Below, one piece after another: positions 3,804 through 11,385 of a DNA stretch of 40,865 nucleotides. Source of the stretch: a virus; the UHGV virus genome UHGV-0180691. The stretch is one strand, 5' to 3'. The notes under the pieces are model-generated. The model saw only the letters and a program-made list of their open reading frames with translations, had not been told where the DNA came from and made no database searches. The translations under genes and the position numbers were made by a program. How positions within the stretch are numbered: the stretch's first letter is position 1; every line of letters begins with the position of its first letter.

Positions 3804-4634
3804 TTACGCTTTAAAGTTACCGATAAAGGTTTCAACCGGCTTGTCGGTGAACTTCTCTATCAGCAGGTCACGGAACTCGTTGGCGATAGCTTCTTCCTGG
3901 GCTTCCAGTTGAACGATGCGGAGTACAAACACCGGTTCCCCGCTTTTAAGCAGGCTGTTACGCAGGCTAAAGCGGCGTTCGCCTAGGCCTTCATATGGCA
4001 CGCATTTGAACTCGAAGGCGACAGGCATCACGTCTTTACTGCTGGCTTCAACGCTCTGCATCAGGGACTTTCTGCCGCCAAAATCTTCGTCTTCATGAGC
4101 TGCTTCCGAGACTTGTTTGATATTGACGCGACGAACGGCACCAGCTGCCTGCGCGATGGACAACACATTCCCGTCGGCATCAAATGCGCTCAGGAAGTCG
4201 GCCCAGTCCTCCAGCCATTCAGCAATTTCCTTCTGGCCCAGTCGATCGCCATTTACCTGAAGTAGGGCTCGGAATGGCGCTGTCTTTTTGAGGGTGATAG
4301 ATGCGACGTTATCAGCATGGCCAGGGTTAGCCAGAGTACCGATATTGAACACGGAGCGTGCGGTCATGTTGTCAGCATCGATAAAGCATCGCGCTGGTTC
4401 AGCTTCGTTGGCATAGCCAGCTGCATAACGCACAAAGTCAGGAATGCTGGTTGTGGTCATGGCACCGCGAAAACGAAAACGCTCCAGATCGAAACGCTCA
4501 AGGCTTTCTACGTTTACGCCATCAGGGAGCAGGGCAGTAGGGCATGCTGTTTCTTTAACTGCAGTAAGGTGATAACCGGAAAGAACAAGGTCTTTCACCT
4601 GCTGCAGGGCATTGCCGTCTAAAATCTGGGACAT
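3804..4634 (-). CDS. conserved phage early protein, YfdQ-like (DUF2303-type), function unknown
   Basis: 276 aa; size and position between YfdR-like and YfdP-like ORFs; assignment from memory of prophage CPS-53 gene order, not searched. Confidence 0.5.
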   Translation of the reverse strand: MSQILDGNALQQVKDLVLSGYHLTAVKETACPTALLPDGVNVESLERFDLERFRFRGAMTTTSIPDFVRYAAGYANEAEPARCFIDADNMTARSVFNIGTLANPGHADNVASITLKKTAPFRALLQVNGDRLGQKEIAEWLEDWADFLSAFDADGNVLSIAQAAGAVRRVNIKQVSEAAHEDEDFGGRKSLMQSVEASSKDVMPVAFEFKCVPYEGLGERRFSLRNSLLKSGEPVFVLRIVQLEAQEEAIANEFRDLLIEKFTDKPVETFIGNFKA

Positions 4635-4687
4635 AAAATTTCCTTAATATGTTGTCAAAGGGATGTCAGTGATTTGTCTGCTGCGGA

Positions 4688-5059
4688 TCACTGTGCCGCT
4701 TTAAGCTTTCCGTCAACGCCGCCGTTGATCCCGAACAGCTGCCCCTGATCTTCCTGCAGGATGGTCAGCTTGCCGCCTTTGTTAACCCACATTGGTGTTT
4801 CGGTGGTGTCTTCTTCGGAGGCTTTACCGCGCGGGGTTGGGGTGACGTAGTTCAGCTTGTGCTTGATCTTGACGCGCTTCTCTTCGACGGAGTTACCCAT
4901 ACGCTCAATATCAAAGGTGAGGACTACTTTGCCTTTGGTACCGTTGTTCAGAACGCCAAGCGCGGTAGTGTTTAAAGCTGCCGCGATCTTGTTCATGAAC
5001 ACGCCGGCATCCAGTTCGCCCAGGAAATCGGGCACTACGGTCATGCGGTCATTACTCAT
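4688..5059 (-). CDS. conserved phage early protein, YfdP-like, function unknown
   Basis: 123 aa; position and size consistent with yfdP of CPS-53-like early regions. Confidence 0.45.
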   Translation of the reverse strand: MSNDRMTVVPDFLGELDAGVFMNKIAAALNTTALGVLNNGTKGKVVLTFDIERMGNSVEEKRVKIKHKLNYVTPTPRGKASEEDTTETPMWVNKGGKLTILQEDQGQLFGINGGVDGKLKAAQ

Positions 5060-5268
5060 GGTTTAACCCTCTGTGAGGCGGCTGCCACCGCCAGTGGAAC
5101 TTCTCCATACACAACAGAAAAGGGCACCTGCGCTTCGGCTATGGGTAGGAGGTCCATTTCCATAGCGCCCGGGTGGATTGGGGAATGAGCCCGTCGCCCG
5201 GTGATGCCCTTGTCTCTTGTGTAAAAAAGGTGCCCACCGATGTGATGGGCAAAGACTACACACAGCAA
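5056..5268 (-). CDS. hypothetical small ORF upstream of YfdP-like gene (doubtful)
   Basis: 70 aa; ATGA overlap with downstream gene start but TTG start and overlaps another ORF in a different frame. Confidence 0.2.
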   Translation of the reverse strand: MLCVVFAHHIGGHLFYTRDKGITGRRAHSPIHPGAMEMDLLPIAEAQVPFSVVYGEVPLAVAAASQRVKP

Positions 5269-5684
5269 TGATTTTGTTGTGGCGGTGGTGCCTCCACCTG
5301 CCGGACCGGCCAGAACCGGCGACGCTACACCTCAAGAAACGTATTCATTTCAAAAGTTGAAATAAAAACTTGTTGGCCTCGTCACGTGCGCAGAGCCGCA
5401 TTACCACAACTGGAAGCGCACTCTTTCGGTAACAAACCTGCCCCCGCAGTGAAAGAGAGAAGGAGTGCGCTTTCACGTTGTGCCCTTAAAAAGCTGGCTG
5501 TCACCCTCAAGGGGAAAGTGAGCAGCCAGAACAGGGATCACTTCTTATTGCTTTGGCCTGCTTTTAACCACATCAGGCGCGGTGGTAAGTCATTTGCGAA
5601 TCATCCGGTCATTCATACGCCACCGGCGGCTACTTCGTGGGCTTCCTGCCTGTTCGCTGTTGATGAAAATGAAGATAAAAGATA

Positions 5685-5725
5685 TTTGCGAAATGCGCAA
5701 GAAATAAAATGCGTAAAACGCAATT
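5685..5725. promoter_or_regulatory. putative left operator/promoter (OL/PL) region
   Basis: Motifs TTTGCGAAATGCGCAAG (5685-5701) and ATGCGTAAAACGCAATT (5709-5725) closely match motifs in the cI-cro intergenic region (15 of 17 identical to 6542-6558). Confidence 0.45.
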
Positions 5726-5733
5726 GAAAGGGC

Positions 5734-5766
5734 GTAAAAAAACCGCCGTGTAGGCGGTTATTTGTT
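5734..5766 (-). terminator. rho-independent terminator downstream of repressor gene (possibly bidirectional)
   Basis: Stem AACCGCC / GGCGGTT with 6-nt loop (5741-5760); 7 A on plus strand upstream gives a U-run on the minus-strand transcript. Confidence 0.7.
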
Positions 5767-5777
5767 CTTAGGGGATG

Positions 5778-6473
5778 TTATCCGTGCCGTTTAACTGACT
5801 GCGACTGGCTGATCATTACCTTGCCGAAAACGTAAAATCTGTCTTCATTGGACTTATCCACTGACCACTCCCGATATTTAGGGTTATCGGAAATGACAAG
5901 AATTTTATCTGGGATCATCTGTAATCTTTTGACGTAAATTTTATCATCAAAACCAAAGACATAAATCCCATCACCATCAAACTCATTAATCGAAATATCA
6001 ACGAATATCAAATCACCTGGTTCAATGGTATCAGCCATGCTGTCACCACGAACGTTAATCACTTTGACCGTATCTGGTGTTCTCCCACCAAATAATGCGG
6101 CGGCTCTTTCGTTGTTGTACTCAATGGACCTGATGACATCGACGACATCACTACCTTGTATATGGCCCATGCCAGCACTGGCGCTGACATCGAGCAACTC
6201 GACTCTAAACACAGGGTCACCCTCTCCATAAGCTGGATTTTTACCACTGGATTTACATACAGTATTTTCATTTGGAGATGGTGTAAAGAGTTCTGCCACG
6301 CTGACACCAAGTGCCGTAGCATATTTGCTAAGCGATTGTTCAGTAAATGACTTTTGTTTTCCAGTCTCAACCCGTGAGACGTTCGCACCGTCAATACCTA
6401 CAGCTTCAGCAAGATCTGAAATTTTCATGCCCTTTTCGAGGCGTAATTCTCTAATGCGGTTTCCTATGTTCAT
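5778..6473 (-). CDS. cI: CI-like prophage repressor (N-terminal HTH, C-terminal LexA/S24-like autopeptidase domain)
   Basis: 231 aa; N-terminal HTH (IRELRLEKGMKISDLAEAVGIDGANVSRVETG); C-terminal domain with GDSM and VKRL context typical of S24 Ser/Lys dyad; divergent from cro-like gene. Confidence 0.9.
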   Translation of the reverse strand: MNIGNRIRELRLEKGMKISDLAEAVGIDGANVSRVETGKQKSFTEQSLSKYATALGVSVAELFTPSPNENTVCKSSGKNPAYGEGDPVFRVELLDVSASAGMGHIQGSDVVDVIRSIEYNNERAAALFGGRTPDTVKVINVRGDSMADTIEPGDLIFVDISINEFDGDGIYVFGFDDKIYVKRLQMIPDKILVISDNPKYREWSVDKSNEDRFYVFGKVMISQSQSVKRHG

Positions 6474-6484
6474 GCGTCCATTAC

Positions 6485-6566
6485 AGGTTGTTTTTGCGTG
6501 ATATGCAAAGCAACTTGCGCAAGTCGTAACTACACATTAATATGCGTAATGCGCAATTACAGGGGG
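6485..6566. promoter_or_regulatory. putative right operator region (OR) with divergent PRM/PR promoters
   Basis: Repeated operator-like motifs TTTGCGTGATATGCAAAG (6493-6510), CTTGCGCAAG (6514-6523) and ATGCGTAATGCGCAATT (6542-6558) between divergent cI and cro. Confidence 0.55.
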
Positions 6567-6570
6567 TATT

Positions 6571-6834
6571 ATGCAATCACCGTTAAGAAATTTGCGAAAA
6601 TCGCAAGGTTTGACTCTCTCTCATGTGGCAAACGTGGTGGACATTGATCCAGCCAACCTAAGCCGAATTGAAAGGGGTCAACAAATCGCATCACTCGATG
6701 TAGCTGAAAGGCTTGTGAAGTTTTATTCGGGCCAAATTGATGAGCTCCAAATCTTGTACCCGCACCGTTATACGCAGGCTACAGAAACTGGGGAAGCAAC
6801 GGTACCACAGGAAAAAGGGGAAAGCCGTGGGTAA
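6571..6834 (+). CDS. cro: Cro-like HTH transcriptional regulator
   Basis: 87 aa; HTH (LRKSQGLTLSHVANVVDIDPANLSRIERG); divergent from cI; RBS AGGGGG upstream. Confidence 0.8.
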   Translation: MQSPLRNLRKSQGLTLSHVANVVDIDPANLSRIERGQQIASLDVAERLVKFYSGQIDELQILYPHRYTQATETGEATVPQEKGESRG

Positions 6835-7375
6835 CGAACCGGAATGGAAAGTTGATAAGCAGCCAGCCTGGCTGGTGGCCGCAATCAAAAAAACAATCAC
6901 CGAACTGCCGGGCGGATATTCAGAAGCTGCTGAGTGGTTGGGTGTGACCGAGAACGCGCTGTTTAACCGGCTGCGTACCGATGGTGATCAGATCTTCCCG
7001 CTCGGTTGGGCGATGGTGCTTCAGCGTGCTGGTGGTTCAAACCACATCGCGAACGCTATTGCACGTCACTCGAACGGTGTTTTTGTGCCATTGGCTGATG
7101 TTGAAGAGATTGAGAACGGCGATATCAACCAGCGTCTCATGGAGTCAGTTGAGTGGATCGGCAGGCATTCGCAATACGTTCGTAAAGCTACCGCTGACGG
7201 CGTTATTGATGCTCAGGAACGCGCCCAGATCGAAGAGAACAGCTATCAGGTGATGGCTAAGTGGCAGGAACATTTGACGCTGCTTTTCCGTGTGTTTTGC
7301 GCGCCGGAAAAGAGTGACGCCCGCGAGTGTGCAGCTCCGGGCGTCGTGGCAGACAAATCTTGTATGGAGAAGTAA
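6827..7375 (+). CDS. putative CII-like/YdaT-like early regulatory protein
   Basis: Start moved to GTG at 6827 (RBS GGGGAAAG upstream; overlaps cro stop); position immediately after cro; family assignment tentative. Confidence 0.4.
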   Translation: MGNEPEWKVDKQPAWLVAAIKKTITELPGGYSEAAEWLGVTENALFNRLRTDGDQIFPLGWAMVLQRAGGSNHIANAIARHSNGVFVPLADVEEIENGDINQRLMESVEWIGRHSQYVRKATADGVIDAQERAQIEENSYQVMAKWQEHLTLLFRVFCAPEKSDARECAAPGVVADKSCMEK

Positions 7376-7380
7376 TCCGC

Positions 7381-7707
7381 ATGACCAGTTTAACGGCTTT
7401 TAACCGTTTACCGCAACTGAGGATGATCCCGGTACCGGGCGCTCCGTTGTTTCGGTATGAACGCAGAATAGCAAACCGCTGGGTGCCATGTAACCACAGT
7501 CGGGCGGTCGCAATTGTGGGGGTTTACTACAGGAAGGCGAAACGCTTATGCGCGAAGTTAACCGAAGGTTCAAAGACCACAGAGGGATCCCCGTTCGGGT
7601 TATCCGGTGGGAGCCAGAGACTCAACGAGTTATCTACCTGCGGGATGGTTATAACCACGAATGTTTCAGCCCGCTCGAACAATTCAAGCGCAAGTTTACA
7701 GAGTTAA
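7381..7707 (+). CDS. hypothetical early protein
   Basis: ATG at 7381 with GGAG 10 nt upstream; 109 aa; between cII-like and replication genes. Confidence 0.35.
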   Translation: MTSLTAFNRLPQLRMIPVPGAPLFRYERRIANRWVPCNHSRAVAIVGVYYRKAKRLCAKLTEGSKTTEGSPFGLSGGSQRLNELSTCGMVITTNVSARSNNSSASLQS

Positions 7708-7716
7708 AGGACGACC

Positions 7717-8571
7717 ATGAGCACTAAATTAACGGGTTACGTTTGGGACGCTTGTGCCGCTTCTGGCATGAAGCTGTCCAGCGTTGCCATCATGGCGCGT
7801 CTGGCAGACTTCAGCAGTGATGAAGGGGTTAGCTGGCCTTCCATCGCTACCATCGCGCGCCAGATTGGTGCCGGTGAGAGCACGGTTCGCACAGCCATAT
7901 CTCAACTGGAAAAAGACGGGTGGTTAACCCGCCAGCAGCGCCGTAAAGGCAACCGCAATGCATCGAACGTTTACCAGCTCAATGTTGCGAAATTACAGGC
8001 TGCTGCTTTTTCTCACCTGTCAGATTCTGACGCATCAAATTCTGATGCCTCAAAAACCGACGCGTCAAAATCTGAGGCATCAAAAAACGATGAAAAAGGC
8101 GGTTTTCACCCGTCAGAATCTGGGGGGGATCCGTCAGTAAATACAACTACTGATCCATCAGTTAAAAAACCTTTTTGTCCGGTTGCGCCGCAACCAGACC
8201 CTGAAGTGATGATTACCGATAACGCCATCCTGGTTCTGAATCATCTGAACCTGGTTAGCGGCTCACGATACCAAAAATCAAAAACTTCTCTGGAAAACAT
8301 CCGTGCTCGCTTGCGCGAAGGTTACACCGTTGGTGACTTACAACTGGTGATTGACCTTAAGCATGAGCACTGGAACGGCAATGACGTGCAGTACCAGTAC
8401 ATGCGCCCTGAAACGCTATTTGGCCCGAAAAAGTTCGAGGGTTATCTGCAAAGCGGGATCCGTTGGGACAAGAAGGGGCGTCCACCACGTGAAAGCTGGG
8501 GTGAAAAGAAACACGATCCGATGAAGTTCGGTCCGGTTGATACCAAGATTCCAGAGGGGTTCAGAGGATGA
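7717..8571 (+). CDS. replication initiation protein (O-like, N-terminal winged-HTH; conserved phage C-terminal domain)
   Basis: 284 aa; position after cro/cII; internal low-complexity linker encoded by direct repeats (iteron-like) as in lambda O; RBS AAAGGA upstream. Confidence 0.65.
   Translation: MSTKLTGYVWDACAASGMKLSSVAIMARLADFSSDEGVSWPSIATIARQIGAGESTVRTAISQLEKDGWLTRQQRRKGNRNASNVYQLNVAKLQAAAFSHLSDSDASNSDASKTDASKSEASKNDEKGGFHPSESGGDPSVNTTTDPSVKKPFCPVAPQPDPEVMITDNAILVLNHLNLVSGSRYQKSKTSLENIRARLREGYTVGDLQLVIDLKHEHWNGNDVQYQYMRPETLFGPKKFEGYLQSGIRWDKKGRPPRESWGEKKHDPMKFGPVDTKIPEGFRG
8026..8088. repeat. four direct repeats with 15-bp periodicity (core GAYGCNTCAAAA), iteron-like, inside the replication gene
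   Basis: Cores start at 8029, 8044, 8059, 8074; followed by an A-rich stretch; encode the SDASNSDASKTDASKSEASKND linker. Confidence 0.5.
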
Positions 8572-9455
8572 CGGAAAATAAATACTGCCGCGCACTGGCT
8601 GAACTCCGTTCAAAACCAGCGCATGAATTGAAAGAAGTTGGCGATCAGTGGCGAACTCCAGATCTACTTTTTTGGGGCATCAATTCGATATTTGGCCCGA
8701 TGGCTCTGGATCTGTTTGCAGATGATAGCAATGCAAAATGCCCTGCATGGTATACCGCCGAAGATAACGCGTTGACGCAGGACTGGTCAGAACGTCTGGC
8801 AGAACTCGGTGGCGCCGCGTTTGCTAACCCGCCATACAGCCGTTCTCAGTACCATGAAAAGCAGGCCATCACTGGCATGACTCACATCATGAATCACACA
8901 ATGGCTATGCGTGATAAAGGTGGTCGTTACATATACCTCGTGAAGTCAGCCACAAGTGAAACATGGTGGCCGGAGGATGCCGATCACATCATGTTTATTC
9001 GTGGTCGTATTGGGTTTGATCTTCCTGTTTGGTTTGTTCCCGCTGACGAGAGGCAGCAACCCACCAGCGCATTTTTTGCCGGGGCAATAGCTGTTTTCGA
9101 CAAAACCTGGCGTGGTGAAAGCTTCAGCTATATCAATCGCACCGAACTGGAAGAAAAAGGGCGTGCAGCATTGTCATTGGCTCAATTCGCCGCGGCAAAA
9201 ATGGCCCTTCCTTCGGTGCCGGAAAAAGCAATGCCTACTCCAATTGCAACACCTGATGCAGAGTCGCGCATCTGGCCTCTTGAGGTTGGACTGGTGTTTA
9301 ACCAAATTGAAGGGGCTGACGCTCTACCTGTTTCACAGCAGAACAAGCTGAAAGCCAATATCAACCAGCTGTGGCTCGAACGTATGCCTACGAGTGAAAT
9401 TATCACGACCGCTGGTGGTCTCTTCAACAGCATGCAGGGGGCCGTCAATGCGTGA
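8568..9455 (+). CDS. DNA N6-adenine methyltransferase (phage Dam-like)
   Basis: 295 aa; motifs DLFADDSN and FANPPYS (NPPY catalytic motif); stop overlaps start of the next methyltransferase gene. Confidence 0.7.
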   Translation: MTENKYCRALAELRSKPAHELKEVGDQWRTPDLLFWGINSIFGPMALDLFADDSNAKCPAWYTAEDNALTQDWSERLAELGGAAFANPPYSRSQYHEKQAITGMTHIMNHTMAMRDKGGRYIYLVKSATSETWWPEDADHIMFIRGRIGFDLPVWFVPADERQQPTSAFFAGAIAVFDKTWRGESFSYINRTELEEKGRAALSLAQFAAAKMALPSVPEKAMPTPIATPDAESRIWPLEVGLVFNQIEGADALPVSQQNKLKANINQLWLERMPTSEIITTAGGLFNSMQGAVNA

Positions 9456-11385
9456 AATCATCGTTGATAACTTTGCCGGTGGTGGCGGCGCGAGTACCGG
9501 CATTGAACTGGCCATCGGGCGTAGCGTGGATATCGCTATCAACCACGACGAAAACGCTATTGCGATGCATAAGACGAATCACCCAGACACGCTGCATTAT
9601 TGCGAGTCGGTGTTTGACGTTGACCCAAGCGCAGCCACCAGCGGTAAACCTGTCGGCCTGGCCTGGTTTAGCCCTGACTGCCGCCACTTTTCCAAAGCGA
9701 AGGGCGCTAAGCCAGTTAAGAAAGAGATTCGCGGGCTGGCGTGGATTGTTCTGCGCTGGGCGCTGGCAGTACGTCCCCGAGTCATGATGCTGGAGAACGT
9801 CGAAGAATTTAAGACATGGGGCCCGCTGCTGGATGAAGAATTACGCCCGGATCCTGAGCGTGCTGGTGAAACATTCGAGGCATTTGTCGGCATGCTGTCG
9901 ACTGGTATCGCTGCGAATCACCCAGCACTGGCTGAGGTTTGCGAATTTCTTGCCATTGAGCCGCACGGCAAGCAGGCGCAACAGCTGATCGCCGGGCTTG
10001 GCTATGAGGTCGATTATCGTGAACTGCGCGCTTGTGACTATGGCGCGCCGACGATCAGAAAGCGTTTCTTCATGGTCATGCGTTGTGACGGCCGCAAGAT
10101 TCATTGGCCTGAAGCGACTCATGGGGATCCAAAATCACTGGAAGTACAAAGCGGCAAGCTGGCGCCATGGCGTACCGCGGCGGAGTGCATTGACTGGAAT
10201 ATCCCGGCCCGGTCCATCTTCGACCGCAAAAAGCCGCTGGCGGAAAATACGCTCAAACGTATCGCGCGCGGCATCCAGCGTTTCGTTATCGAGAGTGCTT
10301 CGCCGTTTATCGTTAAGTGCAACCACACCACGTCACACGGCAAATATGATTGTTTCCGTGGGCAGGAGCTCGAGGCTCCATTACAAACCATCACGAAAAC
10401 CCACGGCTATGCGCTGGCGGTACCGCATCTTACTAAATTCCGCACCGGGGCCACCGGGCAGCCAGTGACCGAGCCGGTTCCAACTGTCACCGCTGGTACG
10501 TCGGCGCGCCCGGGCGGGAATGGACATGCGCTTGGCGTAGTTGAGGCCGCCCTGACACCGTTCCTGGCTGGCAATGGCGGCAGTGAGTACCAGGCAAAGC
10601 CGCGCCCGCTGGATAAACCCGCTCATACAATCCTCAAGCAGTCCCACGCGTGCGTGGTTGCGCCGGTCATCGCCCGCCAGTTTGGCGCCAGTGTTGGGCA
10701 CAGGGCTGACGAACCGAGCGCGACGATTACTGCAGGTGGTGGCGGTAAGTCGCAGCTGGTAACTCCAACATTGATCCAGATGGGGTACGGCGAACGCCCA
10801 GGACAAGAACCGCGTGTTCTTCAACTGAATAACCCGCTCGGCACGGTCACTGCTGGTGGTAATAAGTTTGCAACGGTGAGCGCGTTCCTGGCGAAGCACT
10901 ATGGTGGGAATTACACGGGGCCGGGTGTTGGTATGGATGAGCCTGCCCATTCAGTCACTACTGTTGATCATCACGCGGTAGTTGCGTCGCACCTGGTGAA
11001 GCTGCGCGGAACCTGCCGCGACGGTCAGACCATGGATACACCTATGCCGACGATTACCGCTGGTGGCCAGCATGTTGGCGAGGTCCGGACATTCCTCGAA
11101 ACATACTGCGGTGATAGCGAGGATGAATGGCTGGTGACGATCGAGGGGGTTAAGTACCAGATCGTCGATATCGGAATGCGCATGCTGCAACCGCATGAGC
11201 TTTATAAGGCGCAGGGCTTCCCTGACGGCTACGTTATCGATCAGGACTATCGCGGCAATCGTTACGCCAAAGACAAGCAGGTAGCGCGCTGCGGTAACGC
11301 AGTACCGCCGCCGTTCGCTCGTGCTCTGGTAGAAGCAAATCTTCCTGAATTATGTGCAAATCAAAAGGCGGGTGCAGCCGCCTGA
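9448..11385 (+). CDS. DNA cytosine-5 methyltransferase with extended repeat-containing variable region
   Basis: Start at ATG 9448 (MREIIVDNFAGGGGASTG = motif I); SPDCRHFS (catalytic Cys motif IV), MLENVEEF (ENV motif VI), C-terminal LQGFP and GNAVPPPFARAL (motifs IX/X); about 360-aa region between motifs VIII and IX with repeated T(V/I)TAGG modules. Confidence 0.85.
   Translation: MREIIVDNFAGGGGASTGIELAIGRSVDIAINHDENAIAMHKTNHPDTLHYCESVFDVDPSAATSGKPVGLAWFSPDCRHFSKAKGAKPVKKEIRGLAWIVLRWALAVRPRVMMLENVEEFKTWGPLLDEELRPDPERAGETFEAFVGMLSTGIAANHPALAEVCEFLAIEPHGKQAQQLIAGLGYEVDYRELRACDYGAPTIRKRFFMVMRCDGRKIHWPEATHGDPKSLEVQSGKLAPWRTAAECIDWNIPARSIFDRKKPLAENTLKRIARGIQRFVIESASPFIVKCNHTTSHGKYDCFRGQELEAPLQTITKTHGYALAVPHLTKFRTGATGQPVTEPVPTVTAGTSARPGGNGHALGVVEAALTPFLAGNGGSEYQAKPRPLDKPAHTILKQSHACVVAPVIARQFGASVGHRADEPSATITAGGGGKSQLVTPTLIQMGYGERPGQEPRVLQLNNPLGTVTAGGNKFATVSAFLAKHYGGNYTGPGVGMDEPAHSVTTVDHHAVVASHLVKLRGTCRDGQTMDTPMPTITAGGQHVGEVRTFLETYCGDSEDEWLVTIEGVKYQIVDIGMRMLQPHELYKAQGFPDGYVIDQDYRGNRYAKDKQVARCGNAVPPPFARALVEANLPELCANQKAGAAA

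Follow-up and report, generated by a model that had tools for sequence, protein, structure and literature searches.

Organization of the cI–cro region

The stretch analysed here, virus genome UHGV-0180691 (40,865 bp; hereafter the window), contains at positions 5,685–6,834 the divergent regulatory genes cI and cro together with six copies of a 15-bp dyad of the TTGCG-N5-CGCAA type, which are examined below as candidate operators. The cI gene (5778–6473, minus strand) encodes a CI-like repressor of 231 residues with an N-terminal HTH_3 domain (helix-turn-helix, HTH; Pfam, 5e-11) and a C-terminal Peptidase_S24 domain (3.5e-21), the LexA-like autocleavage domain, and is assigned to PHROG 4 and 6201 ("CI-like repressor"). 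Ala100–Gly101, Ser145, and Lys182 of CI are invariant in four homologues, consistent with LexA-type self-cleavage. The cro gene (6571–6834, plus strand), preceded by AGGGGG, encodes an HTH_3 protein (Pfam) of 87 residues that is Cro-like; it diverges from cI across a 97-bp spacer and is followed by a CII-like gene (CP76; 6827–7375, plus strand). The labels cI and cro had been given in a sequence-only reading of this DNA, made without database searches, and the Pfam and PHROG domain assignments show them to be sound. Across the HTH, including the recognition helix, CI and Cro share 16 of 34 residues (47% identity; BLASTP E = 1e-8), with the common pattern ID.AN.SR.E.G.Q, so that both proteins plausibly read the same sites; it is most likely that Cro also reads the sites of CI.

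A local cluster of near-perfect dyads

Searching the whole window with the 15-mer TTGCGNNNNNCGCAA returned exact matches at 5686–5700 and 6592–6606 and matches with one mismatch at 5709–5723, 6494–6508, 6515–6529, and 6542–6556. These six 15-mers lie within 921 bp, two to the left of cI (OL-a and OL-b), three in the cI–cro spacer (OR3-, OR2-, and OR1-like), and one over codons 8–12 of cro (O-cro), and account for six of the seven matches with at most one mismatch in the window, the remaining one being located at 10083–10097. The expectation from shuffled sequences is 3.24 such matches per window, or ~0.07 per 921 bp, and by our own arithmetic from this rate the Poisson probability of finding six in 921 bp is ~2e-10. 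No window-wide enrichment was observed at two mismatches (26 found, 33 expected); the significant signal is the local cluster of near-perfect sites only.

For comparison, we fetched loci encoding CI homologues (24 genome loci and 80 viral contigs; CI 27–100% identical to that of the window), and built a position weight matrix (PWM) from the OR1, OR3, and OL sites of relatives with less than 95% CI identity. O-cro and the window were left out of the training set, and the PWM scores for O-cro and for the window's own sites are not circular. The consensus operator of the family is TTGCGTAWTACGCAA (wTGCG-N5-CGCAA, a 15-bp dyad), with its half-sites one helical turn apart; T2, G3, C13, and A14 are invariant in the matrix, C4 and G12 are present at 99%, and the TGC/GCA core bases are invariant across the relatives, with variable site centres. 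Over the 108 loci compared (73 distinct cro sequences; CI 54–100% identical to that of the window), the sites keep their positions. The sequence-only reading had proposed a scan of this kind, and the six sites rank first in it: the six highest scores in the window are those of OR1 (27.2 bits), OL-b (24.7), OL-a (23.3), O-cro (21.8), OR3 (18.4), and OR2 (9.5), followed by a seventh of 8.2 bits. The best score in 30 mononucleotide shuffles of the window averaged 9.8 bits and once reached 20.2. That reading had also named a similar frequency of the motif throughout the genome as grounds for giving up the operators; the motif is not recurrent across the window in the PWM scan.

The sequences quoted in the same reading were all found where it had placed them, with some corrections to their description. 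The near-identical 17-mers left and right of cI (5709–5725 and 6542–6558) are present and agree at 15 of 17 positions. The dyad at 6592–6606, described there as a perfect 15-bp palindrome, is not perfect, because the reverse complement of TTGCGAAAATCGCAA is TTGCGATTTTCGCAA; it consists of perfect 6-bp arms (TTGCGA/TCGCAA) around an AAA centre. An additional site claimed at 6514–6523 is real as an element, but it is an 8-bp palindrome, TTGCGCAA, that forms the left half of the one-mismatch 15-mer at 6515–6529.

Candidate operators and putative promoters in the cI–cro spacer

The spacer is 96–99 bp long and has the same layout in nearly all loci with CI 54–100% identical to that of the window. 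We aligned 71 distinct spacers and counted the parsimony changes in each alignment column. Several blocks are near-invariant: ATTACA at 6480–6485 (TGTAAT on the minus strand), TTGC..GCAA of 6494–6508, A-C-TTGCGCAA at 6513–6522, T-A-x-x-A-T at 6538–6543, ATGC..CGCAA of 6542–6556, and the Shine–Dalgarno sequence. In contrast to these blocks, the operator centres and the DNA between the sites show 3–9 changes per column.

Towards cI, the invariant blocks suggest a promoter PRM for repressor synthesis, with a putative −10 element TGTAAT (6480–6485, minus strand; 0–1 changes per position in the 71 relatives) and a putative −35 element TTGCAT (6508–6503, minus strand) at a 17-bp spacing. The cI ATG is only 7 nt downstream of this −10 element and has no Shine–Dalgarno sequence before it; thus, the cI mRNA from PRM is probably leaderless. 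The OR3-like site (6494–6508, TTGCGTGATATGCAA; one mismatch, 18.4 bits) overlaps the putative PRM −35, and its TTGC and GCAA are invariant, with 3–9 changes in the centre. Towards cro, the putative lytic promoter PR consists of a −35 element TTGCGC (6515–6520, plus strand) and, 17 bp away, a −10 element TAATAT (6538–6543, plus strand), of which positions 1, 2, 5, and 6 are invariant in the 71 relatives. The OR1-like site (6542–6556, ATGCGTAATGCGCAA; one mismatch), which has the top PWM score in the window, overlaps both the last part of the PR −10 and the point where transcription is expected to begin, and its ATGC and CGCAA are invariant.

The placement of PR is independently supported by work on Citrobacter phage phiNP, in which the homologous 98-bp spacer was used as a lux reporter of the lytic operon, and a heterologous HTH Cro of a Shiga toxin (Stx) phage was placed by AlphaFold3 modelling on a putative operator of 20 bp that ends 12 bp before cro (bioRxiv 10.1101/2025.01.01.630987). 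By our own coordinate mapping, this 20-bp site is the homologue of OR1. That work modelled a heterologous Cro and left the cognate CI/Cro operator set, the OL sites, and the intragenic site undefined.

The OR2-like site (6515–6529, TTGCGCAAGTCGTAA; one mismatch, 9.5 bits) overlaps the putative PR −35 and is the weakest of the six. Its left part, TTGCGCAA (6515–6522), contains the −35 hexamer and is invariant in the family, and a fully conserved 15-mer at this position was rejected, since only this left half is invariant and the right half is weakly above background. We consider it unlikely that TTGCGCAA is kept for no other reason than that it is the PR −35 or is bound by some other factor, which would leave two true operators in OR and make repression at the PR −35 indirect. 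This possibility draws on the right half (6525–6529), where 7–9 changes per column were counted in the 71 relatives, and on PWM scores within the chance range (9.5 bits in the window, which is also the median of the family, and negative values in ST64B and mEp460). Against it, the right halves lie within the top 5% of background in 72% of the 71 relatives, the full and well-conserved OL-a stands in the equivalent relation to the −35 of the leftward promoter, and a −35 hexamer alone leaves the invariant 8-bp palindrome and its two flanking bases unexplained. From the above-background right halves and the like placement of OL-a, it appears that 6515–6529 is a weak OR2, the filling of which probably needs cooperativity.

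A candidate operator inside cro

O-cro (6592–6606, TTGCGAAAATCGCAA; exact match, 21.8 bits) covers codons 8–12 of cro (L-R-K-S-Q). It lies 21 nt after the ATG, at about +43 to +57 from the putative PR start and outside the promoter core, with its centre 50 bp from that of OR1. To the 73 distinct cro sequences compared, which were taken from loci with CI 54–100% identical to that of the window, the PWM assigns a median of 18.1 bits at this position, against a background best-match-per-locus median of −1.2, and the score is at least 12 bits in 64 of the 73.

Codon choice within the dyad is unlike that around it. Leu8 is encoded by TTG in 67 of 67 sequences, whereas Leu5 and Leu16 use six codons each; Ser11 is TCG in 63 of 63, whereas Ser17 uses five codons. 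Where these residues are replaced, the codons are GTG or ATG at position 8, and GCG, ACG, AAG, or GAA at position 11. Arg9, in contrast, is CGN in 71 of 73 with all four third bases represented, and AGA prevails at Arg6. Third-position changes, counted by parsimony on a tree that excluded the O-cro site, numbered 0 and 1 for codons 8 and 11 in the half-sites, and 13 and 14 for codons 9 and 10 in the centre (mean of all third positions, 11.8), so that, of the 63 non-start codons of cro, codons 8 and 11 have the fewest changes (chance, ~1 in 1953). This codon pattern is recognizably that of an operator, with a fixed TGCG/CGCA core and a free centre, and the comparison supports preservation of O-cro by selection on the DNA itself rather than as a by-product of protein conservation.

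The by-product explanation would hold that the match arises from a conserved L-R-K-S-Q peptide together with codon preference near the gene start, and is functionless by itself. An LRxxxG peptide is indeed typical of HTH_3 N-termini, and codons 2–3 of cro also show low synonymous variation, indicating some constraint on codons at the 5′-end. We nevertheless regard this explanation as highly improbable: Leu8 and Ser11 always use one non-preferred codon while Leu5, Leu16, Ser17, and Arg6 vary freely; two four-fold-degenerate third positions only 6 nt apart differ 13-fold in changes, as the operator pattern predicts; and the replacements GCG and ACG at codon 11 and GTG and ATG at codon 8 preserve the DNA core. 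The site also outlives the degeneration of the gene, as the dyad is retained in truncated or start-less cro remnants next to CI homologues in Klebsiella spallanzanii (locus L008, TTGCGCAAATCGCAT) and in Pseudescherichia and a viral contig (L010/L075, TTGCGCGTTGCGCAT).

Another explanation takes what is conserved in the dyad to be an RNA hairpin, formed at the 5′-end of the cro mRNA and affecting translation or stability, and not a protein-binding DNA site. The predicted hairpin has 6–7 bp; its free energy is −6.2 kcal/mol in the window (z = −2.4), compared with −8.2 kcal/mol in mEp460, in which the outermost pair is changed on both sides and still complementary (GTGCG...CGCAC). On the other hand, the outermost positions of the family vary non-complementarily (T..T, A..A, G..T), and the eight core positions show 0–1 changes and no covariation, although a hairpin would tolerate compensatory changes. 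In the ST64B type, the stem is reduced to 4 bp (−4.0 kcal/mol, z = −1.35) while an operator-grade match is kept, and the fold is not significant in a longer mRNA context (z = −0.46). Moreover, the conserved bases are the TGCG/CGCA core of the five other sites, for which transcription in the same sense is not required. A hairpin, though possible, is less economical than an operator, and we judge it quite improbable.

The candidate OL sites and the putative leftward promoter

On the far side of cI, the two left sites lie at a putative leftward early promoter, PL. OL-a (5686–5700, TTGCGAAATGCGCAA; exact match, 23.3 bits) provides on the minus strand, as its first six bases, the putative −35 element TTGCGC (5700–5695), and the putative −10 element TATCTT (5672–5677, minus strand) follows at 17 bp. 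OL-b (5709–5723, ATGCGTAAAACGCAA; one mismatch, 24.7 bits) lies upstream of PL, with a distance of 23 bp between the centres of the two sites. By eye, a TAnnnT hexamer is present at the PL −10 spacing in the window, in ST64B, and in two further loci (L039 and L052), and the OL pair beside a −10-like hexamer is conserved in most of 89 distinct sequences. The PWM scan revealed no third OL site and no equivalent of O-cro downstream of PL. A leftward promoter using the other strand of the palindrome as its −35 was rejected, as its −10 position would be ACGCAA.

A bidirectional intrinsic terminator (5741–5759; 7-bp stem with 5 G–C pairs and T-runs on both strands) is located between the cI stop codon and OL, and an equivalent hairpin is present in the relatives. 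Because a terminator scan also flags 5722–5710 and 5700–5686 (minus strand) as terminator-like, the palindromes left of cI might be read as hairpins that terminate or pause transcription instead of operators. We find this scarcely credible, as the strong terminator at 5741–5759 is already present, the stems have just 5 bp, the relatives keep the operator motif with variable centres rather than arbitrary complementary stems, and the left palindromes vanish along with cI–cro in phage LLS.

The DNA downstream of OL shows several further features. Just downstream of the putative PL start lies a non-coding block at 5612–5660 (ccggcggctacttcgtgggcKtcctgcctgttcgctg), which phiNP, ST64B, and many viral contigs share with strong conservation despite diverged flanks; the conserved PL leader (5560–5668, minus strand) was considered as a put-like or nut-like RNA, a reading that was dropped, as its fold is no better than those of shuffled sequences (z = +1.1). 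The stretch of ~620 bp that separates OL from the first clear leftward gene (5063–5685) contains no convincing open reading frame (ORF) and no N-like gene; the leftward gene itself is yfdP-like (4688–5059; PHROG 204). A terminator-like hairpin at 5251–5231 (minus strand) precedes the early-left genes and raises the question of read-through from PL. This hairpin belongs to an element at 5222–5358 (minus strand) with a sub-threshold Rfam match to the small RNA (sRNA) RprA (E = 4e-4 when 301 bp were searched; 42.3 bits, the gathering score being 70). The last 45 nt at its 3′ end (AUUGCUGUGUGUAGUCUUUGCCC, the hairpin, and a U-run) are nearly the same as the RprA consensus; at gathering thresholds, Rfam gave no match anywhere in the window. 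The element sits between PL and the first leftward gene in the direction of PL, and may be a phage-borne RprA-like sRNA or a mimic. The full element was found only in phages LLS, Flotzy, and Eeyore, where it is unannotated, with partial matches in Klebsiella phages.

Relatives and the exchangeable immunity cassette

Over the cI–cro region, identity to the window is 97–99% in Escherichia phages Flotzy and Eeyore, 82% in Citrobacter phage phiNP, and ~70% in Salmonella phage ST64B, with mEp460 more distant. Same-type 15-mers occur at matching positions in all five, including the one 21 nt past the cro ATG; phiNP, whose CI is 90% identical, has the same six sites, with TTGCGAAAATCGCAA itself in cro. 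Phage LLS is 96–97% identical to the window at 4501–5586 and 6823–8200 and carries a different cI–cro between these segments; this cassette has repeats of the CTAAGT type and lacks TTGCG-type sites (best PWM score, −4.5). The swap without the motif indicates that the motif belongs to the repressor genes and travels with them. From the comparison with LLS, the exchangeable immunity cassette spans 5587–6822 and comprises the PL leader, OL, cI, OR, and cro.

Members of the immunity group were found in Salmonella, Citrobacter, Klebsiella, Pantoea, Proteus, and Serratia, and a CI 99% identical to that of the window is encoded in a Buttiauxella metagenome-assembled genome (L005). Among 5,426 complete E. 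coli genomes, no place covers at least 80% of the cassette, despite the isolation of Flotzy and Eeyore on E. coli. Two loci of Dryocola clanedunensis (L020 and L022) encode a CI homologue 60% identical to that of the window, with TTGCG-type sites and no cro, the next gene product being secreted-looking; this repressor may be orphan or domesticated. An enterobacterial-type cI–OR–cro with full operator layout (CI 61% identical) is present on a 1,407-bp contig labelled Actinomadura rugatobispora (L026, NZ_JBHSON010000232.1), which is probably an assembly contamination. Outside the cassette, two long ORFs with an overlap of ~60 nt lie downstream of the replication gene (8568–9455 and 9394–11385, plus strand), and the product of the second, judged by its motifs, looks like a large C5-cytosine DNA methyltransferase.

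Comparison with known phage switches

The region resembles that of lambda in the divergent cI and cro, the S24 autocleavage repressor, the dyads over PR and PRM in a spacer of ~100 bp, and the second cluster at PL beyond cI; in lambda, as probably here, cI is leaderless from PRM, and CI and Cro read the same sites. The differences lie in the operator itself (a 15-bp TTGCG-N5-CGCAA dyad here and a 17-bp site in lambda), in the number of OL sites (two here, three in lambda), in the weak OR2 conserved on one half only, in the location of OL directly behind the cI terminator with an OL–OR distance of ~0.8 kb (2.3 kb in lambda), and in the extra operator inside cro. As for the DNA-binding domain, the HTH_3 fold gave weak matches to the solved structures of the 434 repressor (E = 4e-4), its designed variant dh434 (E = 5e-5), and SinR (E = 2e-5), which places the 434 repressor with the nearest DNA-binding domains known structurally from phage repressors. 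The operators of phage 434 likewise have conserved outer half-sites and a variable centre, but differ in half-site sequence and length (14 bp, ACAA..TTGT), and the sequence similarity is marginal.

Auxiliary or distal operators are known from other phage switches, among which the flanking sites of phage 186 are counted. In the lactococcal phage TP901-1, the operator OD lies downstream of the lytic promoter, in or near mor. The CI of this phage shuts off the lytic promoter driving the cro analogue mor through three separated dyad operators, OR, OL, and OD (PMC7250872), although its repressor is unrelated in architecture (a hexamer without an S24 domain), the switch uses a CI:MOR complex, and the host is Gram-positive. 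In HK022, a CI operator ~300 bp downstream of OR contributes to immunity, the OL–OR distance is ~700 bp, and CI loops OL to OR (PMC8053113); loss of the distal operator is reported to give virulent or hyper-inducible phage. HK022 thus shares with the window a short OL–OR distance and a CI operator downstream of OR outside the promoter region, but its site is ~300 bp past OR instead of at +43 to +57 in the first cro codons, and its repressor specificity and motif differ. Of the claim of the sequence-only reading that an operator inside cro would be an unusual extra site, the codon evidence supports the extra site as a selected DNA element, while "unusual" is an overstatement in view of HK022 and TP901-1.

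A model of the immunity switch

Taking these comparisons together, we consider it likely that the six sites are the operators of a lambda-type immunity switch, read by CI and most likely by Cro, with O-cro as an auxiliary operator. They are predicted to be the lambda-type OL and OR operators of an uncharacterised immunity group (Flotzy, phiNP, ST64B, and mEp460) that also has a conserved intragenic auxiliary operator. The candidate OL and OR of the sequence-only reading gain from the overlap of the sites with conserved promoter-like hexamers, from the conservation of the pattern across 71–73 distinct relatives, and from its co-inheritance with the cI–cro cassette. In the manner of lambdoid phages, a divergent HTH and S24 repressor and a small HTH cro are separated by a short spacer, repeated dyads in the spacer overlap two putative divergent promoters, a second motif cluster lies across cI at the putative leftward early promoter, and the motif is specific to the cI–cro cassette and inherited with it. 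The pattern of lambda, P22, and 434, with three operators of similar rank at OR and three at OL, was not found: OL has two sites, and OR has two strong sites and the weak OR2. As expected of an auxiliary operator, O-cro has a full motif match downstream of the lytic promoter and shows DNA-level selection.

Several points weigh against this assignment. A search of the literature on this family (ST64B, phiNP, and intragenic cro operators) found no binding, footprint, or transcription-start data and no experimental operator definition. The PWM scores of OR1, OR3, and OL in the relatives are partly circular, as the matrix was trained on them. Since a consensus promoter scan of 5000–7000 gave no sigma-70 site at threshold, the positions of PR, PRM, and PL, which match the consensus at 7–8 of 12 positions, are inferred from conservation and spacing. 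The right half of the OR2-like site is poorly conserved, and OR may work with two strong sites and a half-site, in which case the main role of TTGCGCAA may be that of the −35, or something else may be bound there. O-cro scores below 12 bits in 9 of the 73 relatives (for example, 8.5 in mEp460 and 3.6 in locus L024), and, being weak or lost in some relatives, it appears to be dispensable in some lineages. Finally, the 50-bp spacing between OR1 and O-cro corresponds to ~4.8 helical turns, and with a non-integral number of turns, nothing obviously favours simple cooperative binding in phase.

In the switch so predicted, CI bound at OR1 and OR2 would block PR, with OR1 covering the PR −10 and start and the weak OR2-like site covering the PR −35, and CI bound at OL-a and OL-b would block PL, the −35 of which is covered by OL-a. 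OR3, over the PRM −35, would limit PRM, and Cro would probably use the same sites as CI. O-cro most likely takes up one more dimer of CI (or Cro), which would stabilise the repression complex or block elongation. Bound there, CI may make further contacts, cooperative or by looping, with OR and with the OL sites ~0.8–0.9 kb away, or may act as a roadblock; either would give tighter repression of PR in the lysogen. It is also possible that O-cro lets Cro turn down its own operon late in infection. We infer from sequence which protein binds which site, and likewise the cooperativity, the looping, and the roadblock action.

A stronger role for O-cro, as an obligatory part of the switch, is rather doubtful. 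The centres of the three strong right-hand sites, OR3, OR1, and O-cro, are almost evenly spaced (6501, 6549, and 6599; gaps of 48 and 50 bp), and together with the OL pair this spacing might allow one higher-order CI complex wrapping PR, or alternatively a Cro roadblock on its own gene. If so, the first codons of cro would serve two uses at once, with codon choice and even the permitted amino acid changes dictated by the operator function, and loss of the site would give virulent or hyper-inducible phage.

Under the model with O-cro as an auxiliary operator, the general picture of lambdoid switches is unchanged, and the region provides a clean example of a regulatory DNA site that overrides synonymous codon choice within a gene. 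We found no published operator set for this immunity group. The comparative evidence defines its operator code, TTGCG-N5-CGCAA, and its site map in enterobacterial temperate phages and prophages (Flotzy, Eeyore, phiNP, ST64B, and mEp460-like), and this map would allow the prediction of homo- and hetero-immunity and of cross-regulation among prophages, such as the reported repression of phiNP by the Cro of an Stx phage, the modelled site of which matches the OR1 homologue.

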